From Candidatus Beckwithbacteria bacterium (lineage in GTDB: Bacteria > Patescibacteriota > Microgenomatia > UBA1400 > CG1-02-47-37): 64,000 nt of DNA. The stretch is from contig JAZDKF010000027.1 in NCBI GenBank assembly GCA_043803225.1, positions 22,406 to 86,405 of the forward strand. The letters run 5' to 3'. Shown piece after piece: positions 30,259 to 48,492 of the stretch. Position 1 is the first letter of the stretch, and each line of letters opens with the position of its first letter. Both the position numbers and the translations under genes were made by a program. The notes under the pieces are model-generated. The model had not been told where the DNA came from. It was given only the letters and a program-made list of their open reading frames with translations, and did not search any database.

Positions 30259-31292
30259 GAAGCAGGGATTTTGTTAATCAAGGCGACGAGTCAGAGCAAG
30301 TTAAAAAAAAACGAATACGCAAGACGATCGGTGAAGAAGGCAACCGGAAGCAGACCTTGATTGGTTTACTAGTAACAGTTGGACTGGGACTGGCTTTTTA
30401 TTTACCGCCACAGATTAAACAGTGGTGGCAGGGAATGGATTTAAATATTAATTTGGGCAAAGAAAGTGAAGTCATCAGGATTGAAAAACCAGTAGGCGAT
30501 AAAAAGAATGTTTCGGAAGTGGTGGGGTTTAAAGTGGAGATTAAACAGAAAGAGGATGCCGAGACGGTGGTGAAACAGATGCTGGGAGATTTGGCGGGCA
30601 GTTATGGACTGTATGTAGAAAAGTTGGCTGGGGGAGAGAAGTTTGGGATTAATGAGGGAGAAGTGTTTACGGCAGCATCAGTGATTAAGCTGCCGATTTT
30701 AGTTGTTTACTATCAGGCAGTCGATAAAAATCAGCTTGACCCTAAAACAAAATATGTTTTAGCCGAGGAAGATAGATTGGTTTATGGCACCGGCAGCATG
30801 CAGAATCAGCCGAACGGAACTAAGTTTAGTTATCAGCGGATTGCTTTACTAGCGGCCAATGAAAGCGATAATATGGCAGCTGAGCTGTTAATTAAGTTTT
30901 TAGGCGGAGAAACCAAAGTGCAGGCGAAGTTAACCGCCTTGGGTTTAAAAGACACTAAGATTAAAGAAAATAAAACCACCCCGAAAGAAATAGCTGATTT
31001 ATTGAAGCGAATTTATCAAGGTGGGTTGTTAAGCCAGAACAGCAGGGAAGAATTAATGGATAATTTAACCAAGACAATCTTAGAAGATAGAATTACTGCC
31101 GGAGTGCCCAGTAATATCAAAGTGATTCATAAGTTTGGCAGCGAAGGCGGGGTAGTGAACGACTGCGGAATAGTTGAGGCTAAAAATCCTTATACAATCT
31201 GCGTATTATCAACAGGAGTCAACGACGGCGAGGCGATGGAGTTATTGCCTAAGATCAGCCGGGTGATTTGGGAGTGGGGTAGTAGAGACTAG
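30243..31292 (+). CDS. Class A beta-lactamase-like serine hydrolase (PBP/beta-lactamase fold), membrane-anchored.
   Basis: N-terminal TM, then 'FTAASVIKLPIL' (SxxK), 'ANESDNMAAELL' (SDN) and 'HKFGSEGG' (KTG-like K[TS]G). Confidence 0.55.
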   Translation: MDEDLRSRDFVNQGDESEQVKKKRIRKTIGEEGNRKQTLIGLLVTVGLGLAFYLPPQIKQWWQGMDLNINLGKESEVIRIEKPVGDKKNVSEVVGFKVEIKQKEDAETVVKQMLGDLAGSYGLYVEKLAGGEKFGINEGEVFTAASVIKLPILVVYYQAVDKNQLDPKTKYVLAEEDRLVYGTGSMQNQPNGTKFSYQRIALLAANESDNMAAELLIKFLGGETKVQAKLTALGLKDTKIKENKTTPKEIADLLKRIYQGGLLSQNSREELMDNLTKTILEDRITAGVPSNIKVIHKFGSEGGVVNDCGIVEAKNPYTICVLSTGVNDGEAMELLPKISRVIWEWGSRD

Positions 31293-33649
31293 TTTGTGGT
31301 GGCGCCGGTAAGGATTTTATCGCGCTCTTCCTGGTCTTTTTTAGCTTTTTCTTCCTGAATGGCCTTAATTTGTTCAGCTGAGCAGGCTTGTTTCGGCTCA
31401 GTGCCGGGAATAAAGTATTCAAGCTTAGAGGGGCAGCCTTCGCAGCTGAGTTGACCGGTAATTGAGCAGATGTTGACTTTAATTAAGTCAGTTGGAGGAG
31501 TAAAGACATGGGGAGGCTGGTCATTAAGTAAAAGAGTCATGATTTTATTCCAGATAGGCGAGGCGCCGGTGATACCGGAAGCAACTTGGGACATCGGAGT
31601 ATTATCATTATTGCCAACCCAGACAATGGTGAGAAAATCAGTGGTATAGCCAATAGTCCAGTTGTCCCGCTTATCATTAGTAGTGCCGGTTTTAACCGCA
31701 ACTTGATGGTTTAAGACATTAAGATAGCTGCGGCTGCCGAACGCGGGAATGCGGGCGATCGGATCAGCCAAAATATCGGTTAAGATAAAGCTGGTAGCAG
31801 GGAGGAGAATGGTTTCCGGGTTGCAGTAAAGATGTTTTTGGGCGGCAAAGGCATCAGGTTGGAGATCAGCTTGACGGTCAGGAAGATTGATGGCAGGGAA
31901 GTCGTCGCAGTTAAAGTCCAATAGGACTTTGTTTTTAGCATCAGTGACTTTAAGAATCGGGTGGAGATTAACCCGTTTTCCCTGATTGCTTAGGGTAGCG
32001 TAGACTACGGCCATATCGGTCATGGTGACTTCAGCGCCACCCAGAGTCAGAGACAGGCCGTAGCGTTCCGGCTGATTCCAGGTAGAGATGCCCATTTTTT
32101 TACCTTGTTCGATCATTTTTTCGACGCCATAGCTGGCTAATACTTTAACCGCCGGAACATTGTAAGAATTAGCCAGAGCGTTTCTTAAGGTAACCGGGCC
32201 ATTAAAGTTGCCGCTGTAGTTGACCGGAGAGTAAGGTTTGGAACCGGGAATATCGTAAGTAACCGGACTGTCTTGGATAATTGAGACGGCAGTAAAACCA
32301 TGTTCTAAGGCGTAGGCATAGTTAACCGGTTTAATGGAAGAACCGGGTTGGCGGAGAGCCGTAGTTAGATTAACCTGGCCGTCCCGGTCGACGTCAAAGT
32401 AGTCCCGGGAGCCGACCATGGCCAGGATTTCGCCGGTTTTGGGATTAGTGATCAGGGCGGCACCATTAGTAATATGTAAGGGAAAAAGTTGGTTGATTTC
32501 TTGGGTAACAATAGTCTGAACCTGTTCTTGTAGATTAAGATCAAGCGAAGTGATTACGGTCAGGCCGCCTTGCTCAACCGTAGTTTCGCCAAATTCCTGA
32601 GCGAGCAGGTCTTTAATATACATAACAAAGTGAGGGGCGCGGATGTTTTGATATTGGGGGGCGAGGCGAATTTTTTGTTGTTTAGCCAGTTCGGCTTCCT
32701 GCGGAGCAATAAATTTTTCTTCAACCATCCGGTTTAAAACTTGGTGTTGGCGGTAAATAGAAAGATAGGGATTGGGTCCGAAAGGGGAGTAAGTGGTCGG
32801 CGAAGCTGGTAAACCGGCAAGCAGAGAGGCTTCGGCCAAGCTAATGTTTTTAATAGATTTGCCAAAGTAGGTTTGGGCTGCCTGCTCAGCACCATAAGCG
32901 GTGCCGCCGTAGGAGACCTGGTTAAAATACATTTCCAGAATTTCGTCTTTAGAAAAAAGCAGTTCAGTTTCTATGGTTAAAATTAGTTCTTTGAGTTTGC
33001 GAATTAGGGTCCGTTCAGGGGTAAGCAGGGCATTTTTAACCAATTGTTGGGTAATGGTAGAACCGCCTTGGAGTTGTTGGTTAAAAATAATTTGATTTAA
33101 GGAGCGAAGAATACCGGACCAGGAAATACCTTGGTGATGATAAAAACGGCTGTCTTCGATAGCCAGGGTCGCTTGGATAAAGTGCTGAGGCAGTTGGTTT
33201 AAGCTGATTAAGGATCGGTTTTGATCTTTGTAAAAAGTAAACAGGAGATTTTCATAACGGTCATAGATTTTAGTGGAGAGGCTGGGCGGACGATTGATCA
33301 GATCAGTAGGGCTGGGAAGGTCTTTTACGATAAAGAAGTAGAAAAAGCCGGAGAAAATTAAAATCGACGAACCAATTAGGACAGTTCGTTTAGAGAAAGA
33401 CAAACGGGGCAGTTGAAAGCGGGGTAGTTTAATGCCCGGAAGTTTTAATTGCCTAGTTTTAACTTTAGGCAGTTTGAGTTTGATTTCCAGAGAGGTAAGA
33501 AAACGATAGGCAGAGCGAAAGTTTTTGATAAATACCACAAGGCTGTTGAAAAACAGCTTGATTGCAAAAAAGATTGATTGGTAAGTGGTCCGACCGATAG
33601 TTTCCAGAATCAGGCCAGGCCAGCGCCAGAATTTGACCATGGGGGGCAT
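31289..33649 (-). CDS. Class A penicillin-binding protein (PBP1A-type: GT51 transglycosylase plus transpeptidase).
   Basis: GT51 'AIEDSRFYHHQG' and 'GGSTITQQLVKN'. Transpeptidase 'PGSSIKP' (SxxK), 'NSYNVP' (SxN) and 'KTGTT' (KTG). N-terminal TM. Confidence 0.8.
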   Translation of the reverse strand: MPPMVKFWRWPGLILETIGRTTYQSIFFAIKLFFNSLVVFIKNFRSAYRFLTSLEIKLKLPKVKTRQLKLPGIKLPRFQLPRLSFSKRTVLIGSSILIFSGFFYFFIVKDLPSPTDLINRPPSLSTKIYDRYENLLFTFYKDQNRSLISLNQLPQHFIQATLAIEDSRFYHHQGISWSGILRSLNQIIFNQQLQGGSTITQQLVKNALLTPERTLIRKLKELILTIETELLFSKDEILEMYFNQVSYGGTAYGAEQAAQTYFGKSIKNISLAEASLLAGLPASPTTYSPFGPNPYLSIYRQHQVLNRMVEEKFIAPQEAELAKQQKIRLAPQYQNIRAPHFVMYIKDLLAQEFGETTVEQGGLTVITSLDLNLQEQVQTIVTQEINQLFPLHITNGAALITNPKTGEILAMVGSRDYFDVDRDGQVNLTTALRQPGSSIKPVNYAYALEHGFTAVSIIQDSPVTYDIPGSKPYSPVNYSGNFNGPVTLRNALANSYNVPAVKVLASYGVEKMIEQGKKMGISTWNQPERYGLSLTLGGAEVTMTDMAVVYATLSNQGKRVNLHPILKVTDAKNKVLLDFNCDDFPAINLPDRQADLQPDAFAAQKHLYCNPETILLPATSFILTDILADPIARIPAFGSRSYLNVLNHQVAVKTGTTNDKRDNWTIGYTTDFLTIVWVGNNDNTPMSQVASGITGASPIWNKIMTLLLNDQPPHVFTPPTDLIKVNICSITGQLSCEGCPSKLEYFIPGTEPKQACSAEQIKAIQEEKAKKDQEERDKILTGATTN

Positions 33650-33680
33650 TATAACCTATAATGTCAGAAAAAGGGAGAGG

Positions 33681-35855
33681 TTATTTTAGATTAATAGTGT
33701 AGGCAGGTTCGGTGATTTTGCCTTTATCGTCGATGGGTTTGGGACAGTCGAGACAGTAATCGGTTTGCACCGGATCGGAAAGCAGAAGATGATCCTGCAT
33801 TTCTAAGTTTTCCGTGACCCCGGGAAGAGGCGGATGGTTGGTGGTTTTATCAATCCAGACGCCTTTTTTTAACTGAGGTTCAATTCCCGGCTCTTGGCCT
33901 TTAATAAAGTATTCAAAGCGAGTTTCGCAAGGGGAGTCGGGGTTAGGGCGGTAACCAGTCAAAGAGCAAACAGATAGACCGACAACAGTTTCCGGTTTGG
34001 CCGGCCATTCGTCCGGCTGATCAGCCAGCAGATAGGTCATCAGGTCGTGCCAGATAGGGGCGGCGCCGGAGACACCGGAAACCAACCAGGGAGACATCGG
34101 CGTATTATCGTTGTTGCCAGTCCAGACAGCGATTAAAAATGAGGGAGTATAGCCGATAGTCCAGTTGTCCCGAAGATCGTCAGTGGTGCCAGTTTTAACT
34201 GAGACAGCATGGTTTCTAATGACTAGTTCTGAGTTAGAACCAAAAGCTTGAGACCGAGCATTGTTGTCTAAAAGTATATGAGAGATAAGGTAGGCAATTT
34301 CCGGAGAAATAGCTTTAGTACCGCTGGGCAGTTGGTTTTCCAGATCAATTTGTTCCAAGACTTCGCCAGTGTAGGTCTCGACTTTTAGGATCGGAGTCAA
34401 GTCGACTTTTAAACCGGCATTGGCAAAGACGCCAAAAGCTACGGCCATGTCAACCATTTTAACTTCACCGCCGCCAAGGGTTAAAGACAGGCCGTAGCGG
34501 GACGGGTCGGTAAAGGTGGTAATGCCCATAGCTGAAGCAGTGGCAATCATTGATTCAACTGAGTTGGCGGCGAGCATTTTCACTGCGGGAATGTTAAAAG
34601 AGTTGCCGAGAGCAAAACGCATTTGGACCGGGCCGTGGAAAGTAGCGTCATAGTTTTTGGGACAGTAGCTTCTTTGGCCGGGCACATTAAAACAAACCGG
34701 AACATCCAAAAACATAGTCGATGGGGTAAAGCCTTTGGCTAAACCGACAGCGTAGTTAATCGGTTTGATAGATGAACCAGGCTGGCGCAGGCGGGTAGTA
34801 ACGTTAACATTACCGTCGATAGATTCATCGAAGTAATCTTTGGAGCCGACCATGGCCAGAATTTCTCCGGTTCTGGGTTTGGTAATCAAAGCGGCGGCGT
34901 TGGTGACATTGGCTTTGGCTAACTTAGCGGTTTCGGTGGCAATAGCCGCTTCGGCAAACTGCTGGAGGTTTAAATCCAGGGAAGTGGTAACCCTAAGGCC
35001 GCCTTTTTCAACTAAGGGCAGGCCGTATTTATCGACTAAGATTTCTTTAATATAAAGAGAAAAATGGGGGGCAAGGATCGATTGAGTCGGGGGCTTAAGC
35101 TCAAGCGGTTGGTTTATAGCTGAGTCAAATTCTTCCCTAGAAATGTATTTATCTTCCAACATCCGACTTAAGACTTGCTGCTGGCGGCTTTTAGCCAGAT
35201 CCGGGTTAGCGCCAAAAGGGGAGTAGCGCGTGGGGGCTTGGGGCAGTCCGGCCAGCAGGGCGGCTTCAGCCAAAGTCAGCGCTTGGGCGCTTTTGCCAAA
35301 GTAGGTTTGAGCGGCCTGTTCAATGCCATAACTGGTGCCGCCGTAAGGGATGTGGTTTAAGTACATTTCCAGGATTTCTGTTTTGGAGTAGCGGACTTCG
35401 GTGGCAAAGGAAAGAATGGCTTCTCTTATTTTTCGCTTAATGGTCCGTTCCGGGGTAAGCAGGGTGGTTTTGACCAGTTGCTGGGTAATGGTGGAGCCGC
35501 CCTGGAGTTTTTGTTTAAAGATGGTGTTTAAAAAAGCCCGGGTGATGCCTTCCCAGGCAAAACCATGATGTTTATAAAAGTTTTTGTCTTCAATGGCGAT
35601 GGTGGCTTGTTTAATATAGTCGGGAAGGTCGGTTAACTTGATTGGAGTGCGGTTTTGGTCAGCGTAGATTTCATAAAGCAACTGGCCGTGGCGATCCAGG
35701 ATTTTGGTGGAAACGGGAAAAGCATCAGAATTGAGTTTTCCCGGAGAAGGCAAGTCATTGAAAATAATGATTAAGCCGACGAGAAAGATTAAAGCAGCGC
35801 CGATGATAAAGACCGCCTGGCGGGGGTGAGTTTTAAAAAAGGGTTTTTTGACCAT
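33681..35855 (-). CDS. Second class A penicillin-binding protein paralog (PBP1A-type).
   Basis: 'AIEDKNFYKHHG', 'GGSTITQQLVK', 'PGSSIKP', 'NSFNIP', 'KTGTT'. N-terminal TM. Confidence 0.8.
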   Translation of the reverse strand: MVKKPFFKTHPRQAVFIIGAALIFLVGLIIIFNDLPSPGKLNSDAFPVSTKILDRHGQLLYEIYADQNRTPIKLTDLPDYIKQATIAIEDKNFYKHHGFAWEGITRAFLNTIFKQKLQGGSTITQQLVKTTLLTPERTIKRKIREAILSFATEVRYSKTEILEMYLNHIPYGGTSYGIEQAAQTYFGKSAQALTLAEAALLAGLPQAPTRYSPFGANPDLAKSRQQQVLSRMLEDKYISREEFDSAINQPLELKPPTQSILAPHFSLYIKEILVDKYGLPLVEKGGLRVTTSLDLNLQQFAEAAIATETAKLAKANVTNAAALITKPRTGEILAMVGSKDYFDESIDGNVNVTTRLRQPGSSIKPINYAVGLAKGFTPSTMFLDVPVCFNVPGQRSYCPKNYDATFHGPVQMRFALGNSFNIPAVKMLAANSVESMIATASAMGITTFTDPSRYGLSLTLGGGEVKMVDMAVAFGVFANAGLKVDLTPILKVETYTGEVLEQIDLENQLPSGTKAISPEIAYLISHILLDNNARSQAFGSNSELVIRNHAVSVKTGTTDDLRDNWTIGYTPSFLIAVWTGNNDNTPMSPWLVSGVSGAAPIWHDLMTYLLADQPDEWPAKPETVVGLSVCSLTGYRPNPDSPCETRFEYFIKGQEPGIEPQLKKGVWIDKTTNHPPLPGVTENLEMQDHLLLSDPVQTDYCLDCPKPIDDKGKITEPAYTINLK

Positions 35856-35893: not shown

Positions 35894-36505
35894 ATGAAGT
35901 ATAGAAATGTAACTATTTCCGGCTTGCCTGGTTCAGGGTCATCAACTTTGGCTAGAAGTTTAGCTAAAAAGCTTGGTTGGGAGTATTTTGGCGGCGGCGA
36001 GTTTATGAGGCAGTATGCAATTGAAAAAGGCCTGTTTAATAAAGAATTAAAAATCCATCATTTAGCGACAGTTTACGGGGATGATTTTGACAGGAAAGTG
36101 GATTATGGGATGAGAGACTGGCTAAAAGAAAAATCCGGCCGGGTAGTGGATTCATGGCTGTCAGGGTTTGTCGCTCAGGGAGTTAAGGGAACTTTAAAGG
36201 TTTTAATGTTTTGTTCAATGGATGAGTTAAGGATTGACCGATTGGTAAACCGGGATGGAATTTCGATAGAAGAAGCCAAAAAACATATATTTGAAAGAGA
36301 AGAAAAAAATTTAGGAAAATGGACAAGATTGTACGGGAAAGAATGGCGGCTTTGGGTGCCAAAATCCAGCCAGGGTTTCAGACGGGGCAAGTATTTTGAT
36401 TTTTACCACCCGAGTTTGTATGATTTAGTGATTGATACATATTCTTTGGATAGAGACTCTTGTTTAAAAAAAACTTTGGAGGCTTTATGTTTAAAAAAAT
36501 CTTGA
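35894..36505 (+). CDS. P-loop NTPase, cytidylate-kinase-like.
   Basis: 'ISGLPGSGSSTLARSLAKKLG' Walker A near the N-terminus. ~200 aa. Confidence 0.4.
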   Translation: MKYRNVTISGLPGSGSSTLARSLAKKLGWEYFGGGEFMRQYAIEKGLFNKELKIHHLATVYGDDFDRKVDYGMRDWLKEKSGRVVDSWLSGFVAQGVKGTLKVLMFCSMDELRIDRLVNRDGISIEEAKKHIFEREEKNLGKWTRLYGKEWRLWVPKSSQGFRRGKYFDFYHPSLYDLVIDTYSLDRDSCLKKTLEALCLKKS

Positions 36506-37317
36506 TTAGCTTAGCAATGTTAATGCTGTTGATGACTACGGGTGTCGGAGCTGTGGCAGAAAGCATAGAGAGCAGTAAACCGGTTGATTATTATCTGTCT
36601 TATCCGGGAGTGTTACCGGACAGTCCGCTTTATTGGCTGAAAATGATCAGAGACCGGGTTCAGCTGATATTAACCTCGGCGACATTACCAAAAGCAGAAA
36701 AGCTGTTACTATATGCCGATAAACGGTTGGGAGCCGGCTGGACTTTGGTTGATGGGAATAAGCTGGCATTAGGGGTAAGCACCTTAACTAAAGCAGAGAA
36801 GTATTTAGACCAGGCAGTCAATCTAAGCCAAGGGTTGGGAGAAACAGAGCCAGAAAAGCAGTTTAAGAATCGATTAACTTTAGCGACAAAAAAACATTTA
36901 GAAGTGTTGAATTTATTAAAAGAAAAAGTGAGTGATGAGTCTAAAGAAGTGATGGAAGAAATGATAGAAGGGTTAAAGTTAAAGGTGGAAAGCAGGGGTG
37001 AAACAGAAGCGGAAAAGCTGTTGGAGGAAGTGGAGCTGGGAATAGATTTTGGCGATGGCAAGGAGGCAATGGAGTTGGTTCAAGCCGGGACGGTGCTTGA
37101 GGCCTTGCAGGCGGCGGCCAGCAATCGGGGATTTGAAATAACTCTGAAAGAGTCTGATTTCGGAAGTTTAGTGGAAAGCATTAACGGCTATAGCAACCGG
37201 ACTGATAAAGCCTGGATTTATTTTATTAATGGCCAATCAGGAACCGTAGCGGCGGATAAGCAAGGATTAAACTCAGGGGATTTAGTTGAGTGGAAGTATA
37301 TTAAACCAGCGTTCTAA
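36487..37317 (+). CDS. Secreted protein with a C-terminal DUF4430-like (transcobalamin/intrinsic-factor beta-domain-like) region; candidate cobalamin-binding protein.
   Basis: Signal peptide 'MFKKILISLAMLMLLMTTGVGAVA', then a helical region. The C-terminus 'WIYFINGQSGTVAADKQGLNSGDLVEWKY' is recalled as the DUF4430 signature (x-NG-x...GD-x-[IV]-x-[FW]-x-Y). Assignment is from memory and not searched. Confidence 0.35.
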   Translation: MFKKILISLAMLMLLMTTGVGAVAESIESSKPVDYYLSYPGVLPDSPLYWLKMIRDRVQLILTSATLPKAEKLLLYADKRLGAGWTLVDGNKLALGVSTLTKAEKYLDQAVNLSQGLGETEPEKQFKNRLTLATKKHLEVLNLLKEKVSDESKEVMEEMIEGLKLKVESRGETEAEKLLEEVELGIDFGDGKEAMELVQAGTVLEALQAAASNRGFEITLKESDFGSLVESINGYSNRTDKAWIYFINGQSGTVAADKQGLNSGDLVEWKYIKPAF

Positions 37318-37844
37318 TGATGAAAAAGATTTTATTGGCTTTAGTTTTAGTGTCGGCGGCAGTGGCCGAGAGACTGTGGTTTGATTTGGGGCCGAATATT
37401 GAGCTAATAACGACCGTAAGCGTAATCGCTTCAATTTATTTAGGCAAGCGCTGGGGGGCGGGAGTAGCAGTAATGGCTTTAGTCTTGTCAGACTTAGTGA
37501 TCGGCAATACAATGATACTGCTTTTTACCTGGAGTGCATTCGGACTGATTGGTTATCTGGGACGATGGTTAAAAGGTAAGGCTTGGTGGGTGGCCGGGGG
37601 TTATGGTTTGGGAGCATCGTTGTTTTTTTACTTTTACACTAATTTTGGAGTTTGGCTGATCAGCAGTTTATATCCGCATAATTTAAAGGGTTTAGTGGAT
37701 TGTTATGTGATGGGATTGCCGTTTTTACGCTTACAGGCAGTGAGCAACCTAATAATATTGACAGGAACATTAGCAATTATTAAATATTTAACTTCAAGTA
37801 TTTGGGTAAGCCGGTGGAAGTCCGGCACTGTGCCGCAACTGTAA
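37317..37844 (+). CDS. Small polytopic membrane protein (5-6 TM); possible ECF-type substrate-capture (S) component.
   Basis: 175 aa, hydrophobic throughout. TGATG start overlaps the preceding stop. No ATPase or T component is adjacent. Confidence 0.3.
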   Translation: MMKKILLALVLVSAAVAERLWFDLGPNIELITTVSVIASIYLGKRWGAGVAVMALVLSDLVIGNTMILLFTWSAFGLIGYLGRWLKGKAWWVAGGYGLGASLFFYFYTNFGVWLISSLYPHNLKGLVDCYVMGLPFLRLQAVSNLIILTGTLAIIKYLTSSIWVSRWKSGTVPQL

Positions 37845-37909
37845 ATCGTTTTAAACGATAAGTCAGAAAACCAGATTTGAAGTAGTTTTCTCCCGAGCAG
37901 GAGGCGAAT

Positions 37910-39493
37910 GTGGTTGGACATGAAGTTTTTGATCAGATAGCTGAAGTGAATTCTTTTAAAGGGTATAGGGCGAAGTTAGCAGCGGAAAATCCGGATTTAA
38001 GCCCAGAAATTATTTTTAAGCAGGCTTTAATTGGATTTAATACAATGATGTTTCCCAGGCAGGTGGAAACGTATTTGGCTGAGAAAGCCGGAGAGTTGGT
38101 CAGCCAGGTTGAACAAAAATATGAAGTGGTTGACGGCCGGTTAGTTGATCCGTTTTACGGTCTATTTCAAAAGATGATTGATTTTGCCAGCAGCGATGAG
38201 GAAAGAGAAACGTTAATCGCTTTTGAGAAGGAAGCAATTGGAGCAAAGCCCGGAGAAATTATCAATGTTTTGGATGCCAGCGCTTTGGGTAGAGGCGGGG
38301 GAGTGAAATATATGGATACATTTGAGAAGGAGATGGACGGATCGGTCAGACATAAGGATAGAATTGATTTAACCGGCGAGGGAGAAGACTTAAGTTTTGA
38401 GGAGGCAAAGTTGAAACTGGAGTTTCTAAAACAAAGTCAAGACTTTGAAGAGATATTAGTTCGACCGACGAGGTCTCTCCTTGAAGGCAAGGGACTACAA
38501 CCGTTAGCAACAGCGGCTAGCAGTTGGGATGCAGTTGGGCGGGCAAAACCCGCAAGGTTGAATCCTGAAGTCGAAGTTAAAATTGGATTAGTGTTTCAGT
38601 CGGAGAATAAAAATGAAGAGAAAGAAATGAAAACAGTTGAACCAGGAGCAGAATCGAGAAGACCTACAAGGACAGACCTCGTAGGTGAAATCAGAACTGT
38701 TTCTGATGTAGCCCTGGTGGTGAAAACATCAGAGTTAGATACAGAAACGACACCATTAATAATGAAAGCGGCAAAGCCGGAGGAGCCAACTTTTAGAATA
38801 GAAGAGATTATTGAAGCGCCGGCGACTTCAAAGATAGTCCCTAAAGTCACATTGCTGGAGATTCAACCGGCAATGACGGCAAAGCAAAGTATTCGACCTA
38901 CGAAGTTTGTCTTTGGAGTAATTGACCCTAAAGCAACAGTAACACCAGTGGTAAAGACATCAGAATTAGAGACAGAAACGACACCATTAATAATGAAAGT
39001 CGTAAGGCCTGAGGCGGTGATAGAGCCAGCAGAAGAAGAGGGGGAAAGTTTGGAAGCGAGAGTTGAGCTAGAGGTTAAAACTTCAAGGACTGTCCTTGTA
39101 GGCCCTGAAAAACAGGAAATAGCTGCACCAGCGGCAGGCAAGCCTACAAGGAGAGACCTTGTAGGTATTAAAGAAGAAGGGATTGTTTATCAAGCAGGTG
39201 AAACAGAAATACCAGAGATAATAACACCGGTAATAAGTGAAGAAGATAAACCTATTCCAATTTACCAAGTGCGGTGGCCGAAGCTGCAACCGTTAATAGG
39301 CATTCCGGAGTGGGTTTGGCAGCCGCAGGCAGCGAGTATTGATGAAGCGGTTGATTGGAATTTGTTTTTAGTAATAGTGTTTTATGCGTTATTGAACACA
39401 AAATCACTACTAAGAATAGATAGAGAAGATCAAATAAATGATTGGCCGGGGGAGGGGGTGAAGGAAAAAGTTAAAAGCAGACCGGTTTCTTGA
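37910..39493 (+). CDS. Repeat-containing acidic protein with a C-terminal TM helix; hypothetical.
   Basis: Internal duplicated blocks: 'VVKTSEL[DE]TETTPLIMK' twice with ~90% nucleotide identity, and a short 'PTR[RT]DLVG' motif four times. C-terminal 'LFLVIVFYALL' hydrophobic segment. Confidence 0.4.
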   Translation: MVGHEVFDQIAEVNSFKGYRAKLAAENPDLSPEIIFKQALIGFNTMMFPRQVETYLAEKAGELVSQVEQKYEVVDGRLVDPFYGLFQKMIDFASSDEERETLIAFEKEAIGAKPGEIINVLDASALGRGGGVKYMDTFEKEMDGSVRHKDRIDLTGEGEDLSFEEAKLKLEFLKQSQDFEEILVRPTRSLLEGKGLQPLATAASSWDAVGRAKPARLNPEVEVKIGLVFQSENKNEEKEMKTVEPGAESRRPTRTDLVGEIRTVSDVALVVKTSELDTETTPLIMKAAKPEEPTFRIEEIIEAPATSKIVPKVTLLEIQPAMTAKQSIRPTKFVFGVIDPKATVTPVVKTSELETETTPLIMKVVRPEAVIEPAEEEGESLEARVELEVKTSRTVLVGPEKQEIAAPAAGKPTRRDLVGIKEEGIVYQAGETEIPEIITPVISEEDKPIPIYQVRWPKLQPLIGIPEWVWQPQAASIDEAVDWNLFLVIVFYALLNTKSLLRIDREDQINDWPGEGVKEKVKSRPVS

Positions 39494-39542
39494 GGGAAAA
39501 GAAAAGCTGATCTAGTTTGACTTAGATATTGGTAGTTGACGA

Positions 39543-39558
39543 CACTATTAGTAGTGTC
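39543..39558 (+). promoter_or_regulatory. NrdR box 1 (operator).
   Basis: 'acactattagtagtgt': the palindromic arms 'acacta'/'tagtgt' fit the NrdR-box consensus acaCwAtaTaTwGtgt. Preceded by 'ttgac'. Confidence 0.6.
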
Positions 39559-39573
39559 ATAAATTTTATGTTG

Positions 39574-39589
39574 ACACTAGCTATAGTGT
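39574..39589 (+). promoter_or_regulatory. NrdR box 2 (operator), 31 bp downstream of box 1.
   Basis: 'acactagctatagtgt' has the same arms. The 31-bp centre-to-centre spacing matches typical tandem NrdR boxes. Overlaps a 'ttgaca' -35-like hexamer at 39571-39576. Confidence 0.6.
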
Positions 39590-39623
39590 TTTTATTTTTC
39601 ACGAGTTTGGAGGTTAATTTAGT

Positions 39624-40070
39624 ATGAAATGTCCTTTTTGCGAACATGGTCAGTCGTCAGTGCTTGAGTCTAGAGATAGTGAAGATAATCAGGTGACTCG
39701 AAGAAGACGGAAGTGCGAGCAGTGCCAAAAAAGGTTTACCACTTATGAAAGAGTGGAAGGGCCGCAGTTGGTGGTAATTAAAAAAGACGGCAGCCGGGAA
39801 AACTTTGACCGAGAAAAAGTCAGACGGGGAATTAACCGCGCCTGTGAAAAAAGACCGATCAGCACCGATTTAGTGGAAGATATTTTAGATAAGGTTGAGC
39901 AGGAGATGCTGAAGAAAAAAAGCAGCGAAGTTTCCAGCCAGCAGATTGGGAACTCGGTATTAAAGCAGTTAAAAAAAATTGACAAGGTGGCTTATGTGCG
40001 GTTTGCCAGCGTTTATTTAGATTTTGACAATATTGAGGATTTTACCAGTTTAATAAAGGAGATTTTGTAA
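39624..40070 (+). CDS. nrdR: NrdR transcriptional repressor (zinc ribbon plus ATP-cone).
   Basis: 'MKCPFCEHGQSSVLESRD...RRRRKCEQCQKRFTTYE' Zn-ribbon, then ATP-cone 'VIKKDGSRENFDREKVRRGI'. 148 aa. Confidence 0.85.
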   Translation: MKCPFCEHGQSSVLESRDSEDNQVTRRRRKCEQCQKRFTTYERVEGPQLVVIKKDGSRENFDREKVRRGINRACEKRPISTDLVEDILDKVEQEMLKKKSSEVSSQQIGNSVLKQLKKIDKVAYVRFASVYLDFDNIEDFTSLIKEIL

Positions 40071-41975
40071 ATGGGCCGGCCGAAAAAGATTAAATTAACT
40101 GATAATGCGATAACGGTTTTAACCAAACGGGATTATTTAAAGCGGGATAAGGACGGCCGGGTGGTGGAAACAGCTGAACAGATGTTCAGGCGGGTAGCCA
40201 GAGCAATAGCGGCAGTGGAGAAAAACTATGGCGGAAATAAAGCGGTAAAGGAGTACGAGAAAAGATTTTATGAGGCCATGGTGAGTTTAAATTTTTTGCC
40301 AAATTCACCGACCTTAATGCATGCCGGCACCAAATTTAATCAACTATCAGCTTGTTTTGTACTGCCTTTAGAGGATAATTTGGCCAGTATTTTTAAAACT
40401 ATGGAACAGGCTGCGGTAATTGCCAGAACCGGCGGCGGAGTAGGAATTCCCTTGTCGAACTTACGTCCCAGGGGGGCAAAAATCCGCTCAACCGGGGGCA
40501 TTACTTCAGGACCGATTTCTTTTTTACAACTGTTTAATCAAGTAGCCAATGTAATTAACGAGGGCTCGAGCCGCCGGGTAGCGCTGATGGCAGTTATGGA
40601 TGTTCACCATCCGGATATTTTGGACTTTATTTTTAGCAAAGGAGTCGAGGAAGAAGTATCGAATTTTAATATTTCAGTCGGGGTCAGCGATGAATTTATG
40701 AAGGCGGCTTTGAGCAATAAGGAGTATGAGCTGAGAATGCCAGTAAGTAATGAAGTAGTGAAAAAGACTTCGGCCAGAAGGGTGCTGGATATGATTACCT
40801 TTCAGGCCTGGAAGACGGCTGATCCGGGCATGGTGTTTATCGAGCGGATGAATGATAGCAGTCCGGTAAATCATTTGGGCAAGATTGAGACGACTAATCC
40901 CTGCGGGGAGCAGCCACTGTTGCCATATGAAAGCTGTAATTTAGGCAGTATTAATTTAAGAGAGTGTTTAAAGGTAAACAACCGGGACAAGCTGGAGGTG
41001 GATTGGGATAAGCTGGAGCGCTTAATCAGGCTGGCAGTCAGGTTTTTAGACGATGTAATTGATGTCTGCAAATATCCGATTAAAGAAATTGAAACAATGA
41101 CGCGAAGAACCAGAAAGATCGGTTTGGGAGTAATGGGATTTGCGGATATGTTAATTCAATTAAAAATTGCTTATGCTTCAAACGAGGGTTTAAGAATGGG
41201 AGAGAGGCTGTCGAAGTTTATCCATGATACGGCGGTGAGCGAGTCAAAGGCTTTGGGGAAAGAGAGAGGTTCGTTTCCAGGATTTAGCGGCAGTCAGTGG
41301 GAAAAGCAGGGATTTAAGACTATGCGCAACAGCACGGTTAATACGGTAGCGCCAACCGGCACGATTTCAATCATTGCTGACTGTTCTTCGGGTATTGAGC
41401 CATTGTTTGCCCTTTCTTATATGAGAAAAAATATCTTAGATGTTAATAATACTCAGTTGGTGGAGAGTAATTGGTGGTTTGAACAGGCAGCCAAACGGGG
41501 CGGATTTTATTCTAAGGAACTGATTCGCCAGATCAGCGAGACGGGCGGAATTGACGGGTTGAAAGGAGTGCCGAATGAGATAAGGGAGATTTTTAAGGTT
41601 AGCCACGAGATTGATTGGTCCTGGCATGTGAAGATGCAGGCGGCCTGGCAGAAACATATTGACGCGGCGGTGTCCAAGACGATTAATATGTCGGCAAGCG
41701 CGACCCCGGATGATGTCAGAGAGGCTTATGAGTTAGCTTATGAATTAGGCTGTAAAGGAATTACGGTTTACCGGGACGGCAGTAAAGCCAGACAGGTATT
41801 AAACGTAGGGATTAACAAAGCAGTCAGCCAGCCGATTGTGGATGATAAACGCAAGTGGGTGGGCAATGGCCATCGGGAGGAAGAGTTGTGTCCGGAGTGC
41901 GGCGGCGAATTAACATTTAAAGAAGGGTGCGCGACCTGCTTGGGTTGCGGCTATTCAAGATGTTCGGTCAGTTAA
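40071..41975 (+). CDS. nrdJ: Class II (adenosylcobalamin-dependent) ribonucleotide reductase, paralog 1 (no ATP-cone).
   Basis: 'SACFVLP', thiyl-radical 'TNPCGEQPLLPYESCNLGSINL' and C-terminal 'CPECGG...CATCLGCGYSRCS' zinc ribbon. Abuts the nrdR stop. Confidence 0.8.
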   Translation: MGRPKKIKLTDNAITVLTKRDYLKRDKDGRVVETAEQMFRRVARAIAAVEKNYGGNKAVKEYEKRFYEAMVSLNFLPNSPTLMHAGTKFNQLSACFVLPLEDNLASIFKTMEQAAVIARTGGGVGIPLSNLRPRGAKIRSTGGITSGPISFLQLFNQVANVINEGSSRRVALMAVMDVHHPDILDFIFSKGVEEEVSNFNISVGVSDEFMKAALSNKEYELRMPVSNEVVKKTSARRVLDMITFQAWKTADPGMVFIERMNDSSPVNHLGKIETTNPCGEQPLLPYESCNLGSINLRECLKVNNRDKLEVDWDKLERLIRLAVRFLDDVIDVCKYPIKEIETMTRRTRKIGLGVMGFADMLIQLKIAYASNEGLRMGERLSKFIHDTAVSESKALGKERGSFPGFSGSQWEKQGFKTMRNSTVNTVAPTGTISIIADCSSGIEPLFALSYMRKNILDVNNTQLVESNWWFEQAAKRGGFYSKELIRQISETGGIDGLKGVPNEIREIFKVSHEIDWSWHVKMQAAWQKHIDAAVSKTINMSASATPDDVREAYELAYELGCKGITVYRDGSKARQVLNVGINKAVSQPIVDDKRKWVGNGHREEELCPECGGELTFKEGCATCLGCGYSRCSVS

Positions 41976-41976
41976 T

Positions 41977-43725
41977 ATGAAGATAATTGAACCGAAACAA
42001 TCAGCAGTCGCCTTAGAGATAACCCGGAAACGGTATTTGATGACTGACCGGCGGGGTCGGGTGATCGAGACAGTCGGAGAGATGCTGTGGCGGGTAGCCC
42101 AGCATATGGCCAAGCCGGAAGTAATTTGGTCGGATAACGGCGAGATGAAGGAAATCGCCGAGAGGTTTTATGAGCGGATGGTGACGAAGAAGTTTGTGTG
42201 TTCAGGCAAGGCAATGTTTGAGGCGGGCAATCCGGACGGGATAGGCCAATTAGCGGCTTGTTTCGTACTGCCGATCGAAGATAGCATTGAGCGGATTTTT
42301 AAGACTCTAGGCGAGGCGGCAGTGATTCATAAGAATAATGGCGGAACCGGATTTAACTTTTCTAAAATTAGGCCGCATGGAGACAAGGTAAAAAATGTTT
42401 TGGGGGCAGCTTCGGGCCCGGTTGATTTTATTAAGGCTTTCAGCGCGGCTTTGTCCAAGATTTTACAGGGAGCCAAAAGACAGGGCGGCAATATTGCGAT
42501 TTTAAACGCGGATCATCCGGACGTGGAAGAGTTTATCAGGATGAAGACTGAAGACGGGACGATTAAGAACTTTAATATTTCCGTGGGAGCCACCGATGAG
42601 TTTATGAAGGCGGTTTTAGATAAAAAAATGTGGGCTTTAATTAATCCGAGAAACAAAGAGGTAATAAAAAAGATTAGGGCGGATAAGTTGTTTGATCTGA
42701 TCGTGGATTATGCCTGGAAGACGGCTGATCCGGGAATGGCATTTTTAGACACCATGGAACAGGATAATCCAACACCAAGTTTGGGTCGGTTGGAAGCAAC
42801 TAATCCTTGTGGAGAAATTCCTCTTTTACCCTATGAATCATGTAATTTGGGGTCGATTAATTTAAGCCTACATATAAAAGACGGCCAGATTTTATGGGAG
42901 GAGTTAAGGAAAACTGTCCAGTTGGGAGTGAGGTTTTTAGATAACATGGTGGAGGTGAATAACTATCCGTTAGAACAGATCAGCCGGATGGTAAAAGAGG
43001 GCAACCGGCGGATCGGTCTGGGAGTGATGGGGTTGGCTCATTTGTTTTTTAAACTGGGAATTTGCTATGACAGCCAGGCGGCGGTGGAGTTGTCAGAAAA
43101 GCTGGCAAAGTTTATCCGCCAGGAAGCAGACAGGGAAACAGAGAGACTGGGAAAGGCAAGAGGAAATTTCGGGAATTTTGACAGCAGTATTTATGCTCAA
43201 ACCGGCAAAGCCAGGCGGAATTGTGCGACAACGATGATTGCGCCAACCGGAACAATTTCTTTGTTTAGCGATTGTTCTTCCGGAATCGAACCGGTGTTTA
43301 GTTTGGTAACCAAGCGGCGGACGTTTTTTGAAGACAGTCGGAAGAACAGCGCAACCAAAGAAATAATAATGGAAGACCCGGTTTATAAAGCGTATAAAAA
43401 CAAGTTTGATAAAAAGGTGTTTGTCACCAGCCGCGAGATTGATTGGTCCTGGCATGTGAAAATGCAGGCGGCCTGGCAAAAGCACTTTGATAACAGCGTT
43501 TCCAAGACAATTAATTTTCCGGCTCAAGCTACAAAAGATGAGGTTAGGCAAGCATTCCTTTTGGCCTGGAAGTTGAAGTGCAAAGGGATTACGGTTTACC
43601 GGGACGGCAGTAAGAATGATCAGGTGCTAAATGCTGTTAAATGCCTGGAGTGTGGGGTGGAGTTGGAAGTTAAAGAAGGGTGCGCGACCTGCAAGACTTG
43701 TGGATTTTCGAGGTGCTCATTATGA
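41977..43725 (+). CDS. nrdJ: Class II ribonucleotide reductase, paralog 2 (no ATP-cone).
   Basis: 'AACFVLP', 'TNPCGEIPLLPYESCNLGSINL' and C-terminal 'CLECG...CATCKTCGFSRCS'. Starts 1 nt after the paralog-1 stop. Confidence 0.8.
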   Translation: MKIIEPKQSAVALEITRKRYLMTDRRGRVIETVGEMLWRVAQHMAKPEVIWSDNGEMKEIAERFYERMVTKKFVCSGKAMFEAGNPDGIGQLAACFVLPIEDSIERIFKTLGEAAVIHKNNGGTGFNFSKIRPHGDKVKNVLGAASGPVDFIKAFSAALSKILQGAKRQGGNIAILNADHPDVEEFIRMKTEDGTIKNFNISVGATDEFMKAVLDKKMWALINPRNKEVIKKIRADKLFDLIVDYAWKTADPGMAFLDTMEQDNPTPSLGRLEATNPCGEIPLLPYESCNLGSINLSLHIKDGQILWEELRKTVQLGVRFLDNMVEVNNYPLEQISRMVKEGNRRIGLGVMGLAHLFFKLGICYDSQAAVELSEKLAKFIRQEADRETERLGKARGNFGNFDSSIYAQTGKARRNCATTMIAPTGTISLFSDCSSGIEPVFSLVTKRRTFFEDSRKNSATKEIIMEDPVYKAYKNKFDKKVFVTSREIDWSWHVKMQAAWQKHFDNSVSKTINFPAQATKDEVRQAFLLAWKLKCKGITVYRDGSKNDQVLNAVKCLECGVELEVKEGCATCKTCGFSRCSL

Positions 43726-46044: not shown

Positions 46045-46662
46045 ATGAAAATTATACTGGCCTCGGATTCGCCACGGAGAAAGCAGTTACTGTTTTTGCT
46101 GGGATTAAAATTTACAGCCGTCAGCCACAAAATTAAAGAGGAAGAGTATGTGGGTTCAGATGCCGAAGACTTAGTTGGACAGTTAGCAATTGCAAAAGCG
46201 ACTTCGATCGAGCCGCCAAAAGGAGGAATAGTCATTGGTTCGGATTTAGTGGTGGTAAAAAGAGATAGATTCATGGGTAAGCCAAAAGATTTGCAGCAAG
46301 CAAGAGAATATTTAAAACTTTTGTCTGGCAAAACTCATTCGGTTTTTTGCGGCGTTGCCGTTGCCTCTAAAAACAAAGTTTTGATGAGTGTGGCGAGAAG
46401 CTGGGTGGGGATGAAACGCTACAATGAAAAAATTATTGAGGCATATATTAACAAATTTCAGGTATTGGATAAGGGTGGGGGATATGCCATTCAATTTGAG
46501 CTGCCGGGGTATGGCAGTTTAGTCGAAACTTTTGGAGGTGGAATTACCACGATTATCGGTTTGCCGTTGGAGTATTTAGTTAATTTACTCAAAGAGTTTG
46601 GAGTCAAAGTTGATTCTAACTGGCGGGAAAAGTGTAAAATAGAAACAGGTTATGAGAACTAA
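46045..46662 (+). CDS. maf: Maf-family nucleoside triphosphate pyrophosphatase.
   Basis: 'MKIILASDSPRRKQLL' N-terminal Maf motif. ~200 aa. Confidence 0.75.
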   Translation: MKIILASDSPRRKQLLFLLGLKFTAVSHKIKEEEYVGSDAEDLVGQLAIAKATSIEPPKGGIVIGSDLVVVKRDRFMGKPKDLQQAREYLKLLSGKTHSVFCGVAVASKNKVLMSVARSWVGMKRYNEKIIEAYINKFQVLDKGGGYAIQFELPGYGSLVETFGGGITTIIGLPLEYLVNLLKEFGVKVDSNWREKCKIETGYEN

Positions 46663-47173
46663 ACAGGGATTAGTTTATGTGTTTACCGGCGAGGGAAAAG
46701 GTAAAACCTCGGCGGCCCTGGGAGTAGCAGTTAGGGCGGCCAGTACGGGAGTGAAGGTGGGCTGGGTGAGCTGGTACAAGGAAAAGAAATGGCCGATCAG
46801 TGAAATGAAATTGAAACTTAACAACTTAAAGATGTATTTTATAGGGGAGGGATTTTATAAGTTGCCGACAGACCACGCAACGCCGGCTCAGCATCACAAA
46901 GCGGCTCTGGCAGGACTGAAGCTGGCAGAAAAATTAATCGATAAAGTTGACGTGTTGGTTTTGGATGAAATCAATAATGCGATTAGTGATAAATTAATTA
47001 AACTTGAGCAGGTGATGAAGTTAATAAAGAATCGAGGCAAAACCCATTTAATTTTAACCGGCAGAGGGGCTACGAGGAGACTCCTTGTAGGCGCAGACTT
47101 GGTGACGGAGATGAAAAAAATCAAGCACCCGTTTGACAAAGGAGTGAAGGCAGTGAAGGGTTTAGATTATTGA
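46652..47173 (+). CDS. cobO: ATP:cob(I)alamin adenosyltransferase, BtuR/CobA/CobO type.
   Basis: 'VFTGEGKGKTSAALG' P-loop, 'VLVLDEINNA', 'LILTGRGA' and C-terminal 'KHPFDKGVKAVKGLDY' align with the E. coli BtuR 'KHAFDAGVKAQMGIDY' end. Confidence 0.7.
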   Translation: MRTKQGLVYVFTGEGKGKTSAALGVAVRAASTGVKVGWVSWYKEKKWPISEMKLKLNNLKMYFIGEGFYKLPTDHATPAQHHKAALAGLKLAEKLIDKVDVLVLDEINNAISDKLIKLEQVMKLIKNRGKTHLILTGRGATRRLLVGADLVTEMKKIKHPFDKGVKAVKGLDY

Positions 47174-48054: not shown

Positions 48055-48492
48055 ATGACAGACCTGCCCGATGATTCACAACAGAAACCGCCAGCGCCAC
48101 CGATAATAACCGGCCAGCCGGTAGGAGGGAAGGAAAGAGTTGATAATAAGCCCGCCGCAGCTGAGAGCTCTGGCGAGGCGAAGCAAGAAGAAACGCCGGT
48201 AACTGAGTTTACCCGGAATATAGATTTGGAACCGGAAGTGGAGGGCTGGCTGGAAAAGGTGGAAAAAGAAGACAGCCAAGCGCCTCAAGCGATCAAAGAT
48301 GATAAAGGTCAGGTAGTGCTGGATGATACGGCTCAGCCAGGGGCGGGTTTTAAAGTCGTGTTACCTTTGACTAAAGATGAAGTCGATAAAGGGTTGCAGC
48401 ATAAAGTGCTGGATAGCATCAGGTGGCTGGCAGAGTGGTGTATCAGAATGGTAAAGATGTTTGGCAGTAAAGTTGCCTACAGGAGAAAATAA
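48055..48492 (+). CDS. Pro/Glu-rich hypothetical protein, translationally coupled to the downstream ATPase.
   Basis: 145 aa with a low-complexity N-terminal half. TAATG overlap with the next gene. Confidence 0.3.
   Translation: MTDLPDDSQQKPPAPPIITGQPVGGKERVDNKPAAAESSGEAKQEETPVTEFTRNIDLEPEVEGWLEKVEKEDSQAPQAIKDDKGQVVLDDTAQPGAGFKVVLPLTKDEVDKGLQHKVLDSIRWLAEWCIRMVKMFGSKVAYRRK

Follow-up and report, generated by a model that had tools for sequence, protein, structure and literature searches.

A DUF4430–DUF6580 gene pair of Candidatus Beckwithbacteria as a candidate corrinoid capture-and-import system

How does a very small bacterium obtain the vitamin B12 on which its synthesis of DNA precursors appears to depend? 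The question is raised by a stretch of 64,000 nucleotides from a Candidatus Beckwithbacteria genome (contig JAZDKF010000027.1, positions 22,406 to 86,405; hereafter, the window), which encodes three tandem ribonucleotide reductases (RNRs) dependent on adenosylcobalamin (AdoCbl) and, upstream of them, two overlapping open reading frames (ORFs) that we call ORF A and ORF B. ORF A encodes an exported protein with a DUF4430 domain, and ORF B a small membrane protein of the family DUF6580. A first-pass annotation of this DNA had proposed that the two proteins scavenge cobalamin. That proposal is largely supported by their domains, by homology of ORF B to the B12 carrier CbrT, by conserved gene order, by linkage to nrdJ and adenosyltransferase genes, and by riboswitches at related loci elsewhere. 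We judge it likely that the two proteins work as a CbrS/CbrT-type pair for the capture and import of corrinoids. Because ORF A carries a transcobalamin-type domain and ORF B is akin to CbrT, the pair most likely scavenges B12 for the three reductases. Bacteria of the candidate phyla radiation (CPR) are tiny, mostly uncultured symbionts. Since the three B12-dependent reductases are the sole visible route to DNA precursors, the entry of B12 is a potential growth-limiting dependency on neighbouring organisms.

Domains and folds of the two proteins

The features of the pair, and of the element that follows it, are listed by position in the window.

36487..37317, + strand: ORF A, 276 amino acids, CbrS-like exported protein and putative B12 binder (translation, Shine-Dalgarno sequence, Pfam)
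36487..36558, + strand: putative N-terminal signal peptide or signal anchor of ORF A, MFKKILISLAMLMLLMTTGVGAVA, with an AVA-E site (from the sequence)
36607..36939, + strand: DUF5667 domain (PF18915) of ORF A, a helical extracytoplasmic module of CPR bacteria (Pfam, 50.1 bits)
37090..37302, + strand: DUF4430 domain (PF14478) of ORF A, transcobalamin beta-domain fold (Pfam, profile search, AlphaFold2 and Foldseek)
37317..37844, + strand: ORF B, 175 amino acids, DUF6580 membrane protein with S-component fold, remote homologue of CbrT (Pfam, AlphaFold2, Foldseek, hhalign)
37779..37910, + strand: AdoCbl riboswitch aptamer (Rfam RF01482, 58.5 bits, cut-off 50)
37910..39493, + strand: riboswitch-controlled ORF of 527 amino acids (ORF call)

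ORF A begins with an ATG at 36487, preceded by a GGAGG Shine-Dalgarno sequence at 36478-36482, and its stop codon occupies 37315-37317. An NCBI record from a Candidatus Beckwithbacteria metagenome-assembled genome (MAG; P0121) contains the same protein, 276 amino acids long and 100% identical. The protein opens with MFKK, a run of 20 hydrophobic residues and AVA-E, which reads as a signal peptide or a signal anchor. At the other end, the protein closes with ...AWIYFINGQSGTVAADKQGLNSGDLVEWKYIKPAF, and the peptide that the first-pass annotation had quoted as its DUF4430 signature is indeed there. Pfam agrees with that assignment, matching DUF4430 to residues 211-281 of the 285-residue maximal ORF with 44.0 bits (E 3e-11; gathering cut-off 23.8).

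The kinship to the beta domain of transcobalamin, which the annotation had put forward, was borne out at the level of predicted structure. We modeled the C-terminal 95 residues of ORF A with AlphaFold2, together with 15 homologues, and obtained a predicted local distance difference test score (pLDDT) of 94 and a predicted template-modeling score (pTM) of 0.85. When this model was compared with the PDB by Foldseek, the first 19 matches were all either 3U7Z or beta domains of transcobalamin, intrinsic factor or haptocorrin, with template-modeling (TM) scores of 0.72-0.82, root-mean-square deviations of 2.2-3.1 Å and E-values of 3e-5 to 2e-3; MoaD and ubiquitin-like proteins ranked next, with TM scores of about 0.45. 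A sequence profile of the domain found the same structures in the PDB (3U7Z, E 3.7e-5; transcobalamin beta domain, 0.02; haptocorrin, 0.04), and the invariant tryptophan of the family, in a W-x4-N/G-G motif, was aligned in the 3U7Z, transcobalamin and haptocorrin matches. Single-sequence phmmer searches of the PDB with ORF A and ORF B returned nothing useful, whereas the profile searches did find matches, and NCBIfam has no model for either protein. BtuH of Bacteroides was considered as a further DUF4430 protein and dropped: the BtuH paper names neither a DUF nor transcobalamin.

In the vertebrate carriers, B12 is clamped between an alpha domain, which is an alpha6/alpha6 barrel, and the beta domain. 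No such barrel is present in ORF A, where the N-terminal region gave only the DUF5667 match in Pfam (residues 50-160 of the maximal ORF, 50.1 bits), and a search of the PDB found no relative of DUF5667. The domain also exists as stand-alone paralogues of about 200 amino acids in CPR bacteria (P0212-P0240), which are N-terminally anchored and begin with a similar hydrophobic segment. Aligned with these paralogues, DUF5667 has 49 invariant columns, including the motif VDYYLPYPGILPDHPLYWLKMIRDR...ADKRLGAG.

The stop codon of ORF A overlaps the start of the 175-residue ORF B, as the first-pass annotation had noted: in the sequence TAATG, the last A of the TAA stop is also the first base of the ATG start, a 1-nucleotide overlap. 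This is a classic layout for translational coupling. ORF B belongs to Pfam DUF6580 (PF20221; 95.1 bits, cut-off 27, E 7e-27), and its nearest relatives come from Beckwithbacteria. An AlphaFold2 model built with 23 homologues (pLDDT 90, pTM 0.82) has the six-helix fold of the S-components of energy-coupling factor (ECF) transporters. Among the top 12 Foldseek matches of the model, 11 are ECF S-components (RibU, FolT, ThiT, CbiM), and PanT appears further down; these matches have query TM scores of 0.45-0.64 and probabilities of 0.72-0.99, bar one (5EDL, TM 0.34, probability 0.38).

Sequence profiles narrowed this likeness to one characterised protein. Searched against all PDB sequences (E <= 10), the DUF6580 alignment had a single match, 6FNP_A, which is CbrT (E 4e-4, over the full length). 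An hhalign comparison of DUF6580 with 20 members of the CbrT family gave a probability of 97.5% and an E-value of 7e-12 over 152 columns. Residues invariant in both families include R19 (R26 in CbrT) and P26-N27 (P34-N35), which fall in a shared motif, R...PNV(E/Q), in transmembrane helix 1 (TM1) and loop 1. Conservation extends to E29, D59 and N64 and to the stretches FTWS and YTNFGVW. CbrT itself lies in the Pfam family ECF_trnsprt, and part of its relatives carry the DUF6580 label too. Because some CbrT relatives bear both labels, we take DUF6580 to be a divergent sister family of CbrT. The suggestion that ORF B is an ECF-type component therefore stands for the fold and for the homology to CbrT, but not for membership in ECF_trnsprt, where ORF B scores below threshold. 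The 6FNP structure shows CbrT of Lactobacillus delbrueckii in complex with its ECF module; this carrier has nanomolar affinity for cobalamin and cobinamide and imports both when joined to the module (PMC5997447).

Gene neighbourhoods and cobalamin riboswitches

One genome per species was scanned for DUF6580, yielding 166 confirmed matches, and 80 loci were kept. They derive from many CPR classes, Saccharibacteria, a DPANN archaeon, a Pirellulales-labelled MAG and cultured Actinobacteria (Promicromonospora, Oerskovia, Luteimicrobium and Isoptericola). Some of the 'Gammaproteobacteria' and 'Pseudomonadales' labels on third-party MAGs are doubtful, because the corresponding loci are syntenic with those of Beckwithbacteria. 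An archaeal contig, so identified because of its MCM gene, encodes a DUF4430 protein (a faint match) followed by DUF6580.

DUF4430 neighbours were called by local hidden Markov models on all ORFs of the 80 loci. A same-strand DUF4430 ORF lies directly upstream of DUF6580 in 64 of them, at distances of -44 to +86 nucleotides, and 75 contain a DUF4430 ORF no more than 5 kb away. Among the CPR genomes that have the pair are some assembled fully or nearly so, for example CP064960.1, JACPKY010000002.1 and CAZVTT010000001.1. The other neighbouring genes were clustered and one representative per cluster was annotated, which gave the following counts among the 80 loci: class II RNR, 30; BtuR/CobO, 18; PduO-type adenosyltransferase, 7; NrdR, 17. 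The most frequent layout is NrdR, NrdJ, BtuR, DUF4430, DUF6580. A riboswitch of the cobalamin clan (Rfam) stands immediately 5' of the pair, or of a lone DUF6580 gene, in 16 of the 77 loci scanned (L008, L010, L013, L014, L018, L026, L031, L036, L037, L044, L051, L054, L060, L062, L068 and L077). Riboswitch control of this kind is a standard signature of genes for B12 uptake or biosynthesis. At L010 and L018 the riboswitch drives a DUF6580 gene that has no DUF4430 neighbour, which makes DUF6580 the apparent core of the system.

The transcobalamin-like partner is almost universally coupled to these carriers, in CPR bacteria, DPANN, Actinobacteria and Lactobacillus. S-component carriers are the textbook case of transporters that work without an extracytoplasmic binding protein, and the coupling raises the question whether they can use one. 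Pfam annotates DUF6580 as of 'unknown function', and the literature searched contained no paper on DUF6580 and nothing on ECF transporters in CPR bacteria, on B12 riboswitches of Patescibacteria or on cobalamin uptake in CPR bacteria; the family now gains a concrete candidate function, tied to the characterised CbrT.

Within the window, the genes that would use the vitamin lie close by, and the pair has a conserved gene before it.

35894..36505, + strand: cytidylate-kinase-like gene (Pfam Cytidylate_kin2, 62.3 bits)
39624..40070, + strand: NrdR repressor gene (Pfam Zn_ribbon_NrdR and ATP-cone)
40071-41975, 41977-43725 and 43680-45935, + strand: three tandem AdoCbl-dependent class II RNR genes (NCBIfam TIGR02504)
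46652..47173, + strand: BtuR/CobO ATP:corrinoid adenosyltransferase gene (Pfam CobA_CobO_BtuR, 162.9 bits)

The first-pass annotation had seen no cobalamin biosynthesis genes in the window, of whose ORFs about one third were run against Pfam. NrdR, the three NrdJ genes and BtuR all fall less than 10 kb from the pair. The count of three AdoCbl-dependent reductases in the first-pass annotation is confirmed by the NrdJ_Z model (TIGR02504), which scores them at 684, 594 and 698 bits, each above its cut-off of 400. The NPCGE thiyl-radical motif and the redox cysteines are retained throughout. All three paralogues finish with a CxxC...CxxC ribbon, and the third alone carries an ATP-cone at its N-terminus. 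The BtuR/CobO gene likewise proved to be where it had been placed, with 163 bits in Pfam; against TIGR00708 it reaches 138 bits, under the cut-off of 167.75. Upstream of nrdR, a consensus-level scan picked out a hairpin that resembles a terminator (39541-39558) and, behind it, a site that resembles a promoter (39571-39598), which suggests that nrdR and nrdJ are transcribed apart from the genes upstream. The cytidylate-kinase-like gene overlaps the start of ORF A by 19 nucleotides and is kept as the upstream neighbour across the Beckwithbacteria clade, where L001-L007 share the order cytidylate kinase, DUF4430, DUF6580.

An element that the first-pass annotation had not described joins the pair to the gene behind it. 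The last 66 nucleotides of ORF B lie inside the AdoCbl riboswitch at 37779-37910, whose core, GGAAGUCCGGCACUGUGCCGCAACUG, translates as W-KSG(T/A)VPQL, the conserved C-terminal peptide of the DUF6580 proteins of Beckwithbacteria. The riboswitch ends at 37910, where a GTG starts the 527-residue ORF. The Shine-Dalgarno sequence of that ORF, AGGAGG (37899-37904), is within a CUCC/GGAG hairpin and is paired in the minimum-free-energy fold; the folding energy alone is not distinctive (z = -1.3). The same layout at the 3' end of DUF6580 is kept in L001, L002, L003, L005 and L006.

The 527-residue protein is restricted to a clade: it has no Pfam match and no PDB profile match, and only 39 relatives among 1.84 billion representative proteins. 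Its N-terminal part of about 180 residues is conserved and lacks a signal peptide, the sequence VVKTSELxTETTPLIMK occurs twice among its low-complexity repeats, and it ends in a conserved hydrophobic tail, IPEWVWQ..DW.WFL..MFYALLNTK. In its relatives the tail is retained and the N-terminal domain exchanged. Woesebacteria-type loci have a second cobalamin riboswitch directly after DUF6580 (L030:5627-5752, L037:5519-5591 and L060:5583-5702), and the ORFs behind it encode proteins of about 280-340 amino acids without a Pfam family. Kinship of these proteins to the 527-residue protein was rejected (hhalign probability 2.6%). Proteins behind B12 riboswitches that follow a transporter gene are fresh candidates for B12-related biology.

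Several other observations were made at these loci. Between a DUF4430 gene and DUF6580 of L014, and behind a cobalamin riboswitch, lies a gene for a 444-residue alpha-alpha toroid protein of the prenyltransferase/squalene-cyclase type (L014:3621-4955). The alpha domain of transcobalamin belongs to the same fold class, and L014 may encode a split or complete transcobalamin-like binder. In several CPR genomes, group I introns occur a few kb from B12 loci (L031:9952-10155, L038:7349-7569, L060:6717-6960 and L063:9692-9882), as does a LOOT RNA (L040:10271-10382). About 10 kb downstream of the pair, the window encodes a 145-residue protein without a Pfam match (48055-48492, + strand), followed by a 776-residue ATPase resembling VirD4, TraG and HerA (48492-50822, + strand). 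The same two genes come directly after DUF6580 in Gottesmanbacteria-type loci (L014, L020, L023, L031, L045 and L052), with 65-68% identity between the ATPases, which could reflect conserved synteny or a functional link.

Elsewhere in the window, two tandem genes for class A penicillin-binding-protein-like proteins of 786 and 724 amino acids (31289-35855, - strand) are separated by only 38 nucleotides from the divergent cytidylate-kinase-like gene. The genome, which in other respects looks minimal, also encodes a membrane protein of the tetrapyrrole-binding TspO/MBR family (2359-2802, + strand; 147.7 bits). Strand bias in the window is very strong. The GC skew of the + strand is +0.29 over positions 1-64000 and +0.26 in intergenic DNA; at third codon positions it is +0.39 in + strand genes and -0.50, read on the coding strand, in - strand genes. 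Because intergenic DNA and both gene orientations show it, we ascribe the skew to a strand-wide mutational bias, not to a coding effect.

Proposed mechanism and alternative explanations

In the mechanism that we propose, ORF A would be exported by its N-terminal signal sequence and kept at the cell surface, where DUF5667 probably docks or spaces it. Its C-terminal beta domain would bind cobalamin from the environment or from a host and hand the vitamin to ORF B, which would bring it through the membrane by toppling, as is characteristic of the S-component fold. Once in the cytoplasm, the cobalamin would be adenosylated by BtuR/CobO and the resulting AdoCbl used by the three NrdJ reductases, and adenosylation would sustain uptake by metabolic trapping.

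A motif in TM1 bears on whether such a carrier would need an ECF module. Docking to EcfT is reportedly mediated by an AxxxA motif in this helix (Erkens et al. 2011). The CbrT family keeps it as A16xxxA20, whereas in DUF6580 a small residue is aligned with A16 in only 11 of 81 sequences and with A20 in only 29. The sole conserved small residue there is A15 (80 of 81), with L11 at i-4 and R19 at i+4. Because the TM1 motif is missing and no ECF genes were seen near the loci, we lean slightly toward operation of the pair without an ECF ATPase module, in the manner of BtuM. The fuller proposal, that DUF4430 and DUF6580 make a self-sufficient importer in which a tethered receptor loads a solitary toppling S-component and adenosylation pulls uptake, is offered tentatively, as an idea that we would not call probable. 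If it is true, ultra-small CPR bacteria and DPANN archaea would take in B12 mainly through the pair, and S-component carriers would routinely work with a binding protein, a role that would extend to CbrS of Lactobacillus.

Several points weigh against a corrinoid importer, or against one that works alone. ORF B scores 16.1 bits against Pfam ECF_trnsprt (PF12822), under the cut-off of 30.7, and the Foldseek E-values of its model are weak (0.4-2.2). The only riboswitch in the window is 3' of the pair, with none 5' of it; since it sits behind ORF B, the pair is not itself riboswitch-controlled in the Beckwithbacteria clade. The loci of Actinobacteria have neither a riboswitch nor nrdJ beside the pair, and gyrB adjoins it there. 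All loci were retrieved by a single motif, [YW]TNFGVW[LA], and thus sample a DUF6580 subfamily, and ORF calling was mechanical. As for energy, EcfA and EcfT were not found in the 64-kb window, where the sole ABC (ATP-binding cassette) ATPase is SufC, and no ECF module was seen within 5 kb of the 80 loci; solitary CbrT gave no B12 uptake in E. coli without the ECF module (PMC5997447).

The last of these findings is also a ground for an alternative in which ORF B is an ordinary group II S-component that docks on a shared EcfA-EcfA'-EcfT module encoded elsewhere and is driven by ATP, as in ECF-CbrT of Lactobacillus. It would bind B12 either unaided or assisted by ORF A. The homology to CbrT and the S-component fold agree with this as well as with our proposal. 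Group II genes normally lie apart from the genes of the module, as at the L. helveticus locus, and the lack of neighbouring ABC genes is for that reason uninformative. An ABC ATPase of any kind occurs within 5 kb of 5 of the 80 loci and none is conserved; together with the lone SufC of the window, this led us to reject a dedicated (group I) ECF module beside the pair. What speaks against docking on a shared module is the loss from DUF6580 of the AxxxA motif that CbrT has kept, along with the absence of EcfA and EcfT from the window and the rarity of ABC ATPases at the loci. We regard the shared module as plausible, if short of an even chance.

Two further alternatives would take B12 import away from the pair altogether. 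The pair might serve another ligand, such as a different tetrapyrrole, a metal or a nucleoside, and its association with B12 genes might be mere synteny of small genomes. The depositors of the DUF4430 crystal structure 3U7Z described it as a 'putative metal binding protein', and the Actinobacteria pairs beside gyrB lack an adenosyltransferase gene as well as nrdJ and a riboswitch. We nevertheless find a non-corrinoid ligand very unlikely, given that cobalamin riboswitches directly precede the pair or a lone DUF6580 gene at 16 loci of several lineages, that CbrT, a B12 carrier, is the one characterised protein to which ORF B is detectably related, that DUF4430 shares its fold with the beta domain through which all three mammalian carriers contact B12, and that nrdJ and adenosyltransferase genes are repeatedly linked to the pair, in CPR bacteria, the DPANN archaeon, the Pirellulales-labelled MAG and Lactobacillus. 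Alternatively, the pair might be a surface store or sensor of B12, with ORF B only anchoring or receiving ORF A and another transporter importing the vitamin. A physical complex of this sort would suit the stop/start overlap and the strict co-occurrence of the two genes, DUF5667 suggests attachment to the surface, and no energising component was found in the window or near the loci. Against it, ORF B is homologous over its full length to CbrT, a proven B12 translocator (PMC5997447), the riboswitches of L010 and L018 control DUF6580 with no DUF4430 gene adjacent, and neither btuCDF nor btuB was seen among the loci. A store or sensor strikes us as improbable, and capture and import of corrinoids remains our preferred explanation of the pair.

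Relation to known B12 transport systems

The closest parallel is the CbrS-CbrT system of Lactobacillus. The gene cbrT sits in an nrdJ-cbrS-cbrT-pduO cluster (PMC5997447), and the names cbrS and cbrT go back to Rodionov 2009, as cited in Santos et al. 2018 (PMC5997447). At the L. helveticus locus, we found a class II RNR, a DUF4430 protein of 136 amino acids, a CbrT orthologue (65% identical) and a PduO-type adenosyltransferase; the DUF4430 ORF stops 2 nucleotides before cbrT. Because this ORF holds the place of cbrS in the cluster, we take CbrS to be a DUF4430 protein. In both systems, then, the S-component gene directly follows a DUF4430 gene of the same orientation, with stop and start abutting or overlapping, the membrane proteins are homologous, and genes for class II RNR and corrinoid adenosyltransferase are clustered with them. 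The differences begin with the carriers: ORF B is about 18% identical to CbrT, belongs to DUF6580 and not to ECF_trnsprt, and comes from a family without the AxxxA motif of the CbrT family. ORF A has DUF5667 in addition and is 276 amino acids long, compared with 136 for CbrS of L. helveticus. The adenosyltransferase is of the BtuR/CobO type here and of the PduO type in Lactobacillus, and here the S-component gene runs at its 3' end into an AdoCbl riboswitch and no ECF module is seen in the window.

BtuM of Thiobacillus denitrificans, a solitary S-component-like B12 transporter whose gene co-localises with btuR and for which metabolic trapping has been proposed (PMC6072759), resembles ORF B in being a small membrane protein of S-component fold that is encoded near an adenosyltransferase gene and may work without an ECF module. 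Unlike CbrT, however, BtuM was not among the PDB profile matches of ORF B at E <= 10, nor was it in the top 50 Foldseek matches. It also belongs to Gram-negative bacteria, where it occurs alongside BtuB and without a DUF4430 partner. Cys80 of BtuM, an axial ligand of cobalt, has no counterpart in DUF6580, in which no cysteine or histidine is conserved in at least 40 of 81 sequences; position 129 is serine in 46 and cysteine in 31. Cysteine ligation of the BtuM type was accordingly rejected for DUF6580.

On the side of the binding protein, the C-terminal domain of ORF A shares its beta-domain fold and invariant tryptophan with transcobalamin, intrinsic factor, haptocorrin and 3U7Z, whereas the alpha6/alpha6-barrel alpha domain of the three vertebrate carriers is replaced by DUF5667. 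The logic of an extracytoplasmic binding protein that serves a membrane translocator for B12 is that of BtuCDF with its binding protein BtuF; the folds are unrelated, and no BtuC, BtuD or BtuF genes were seen in the annotated part of the window or in the 80 loci. As a kind of system, a CbrS/CbrT pair with nrdJ and an adenosyltransferase gene clustered around it is already known. What differs here is the separate carrier family, the added DUF5667 domain, the riboswitch inside the 3' end of the carrier gene, and the CPR and DPANN hosts.

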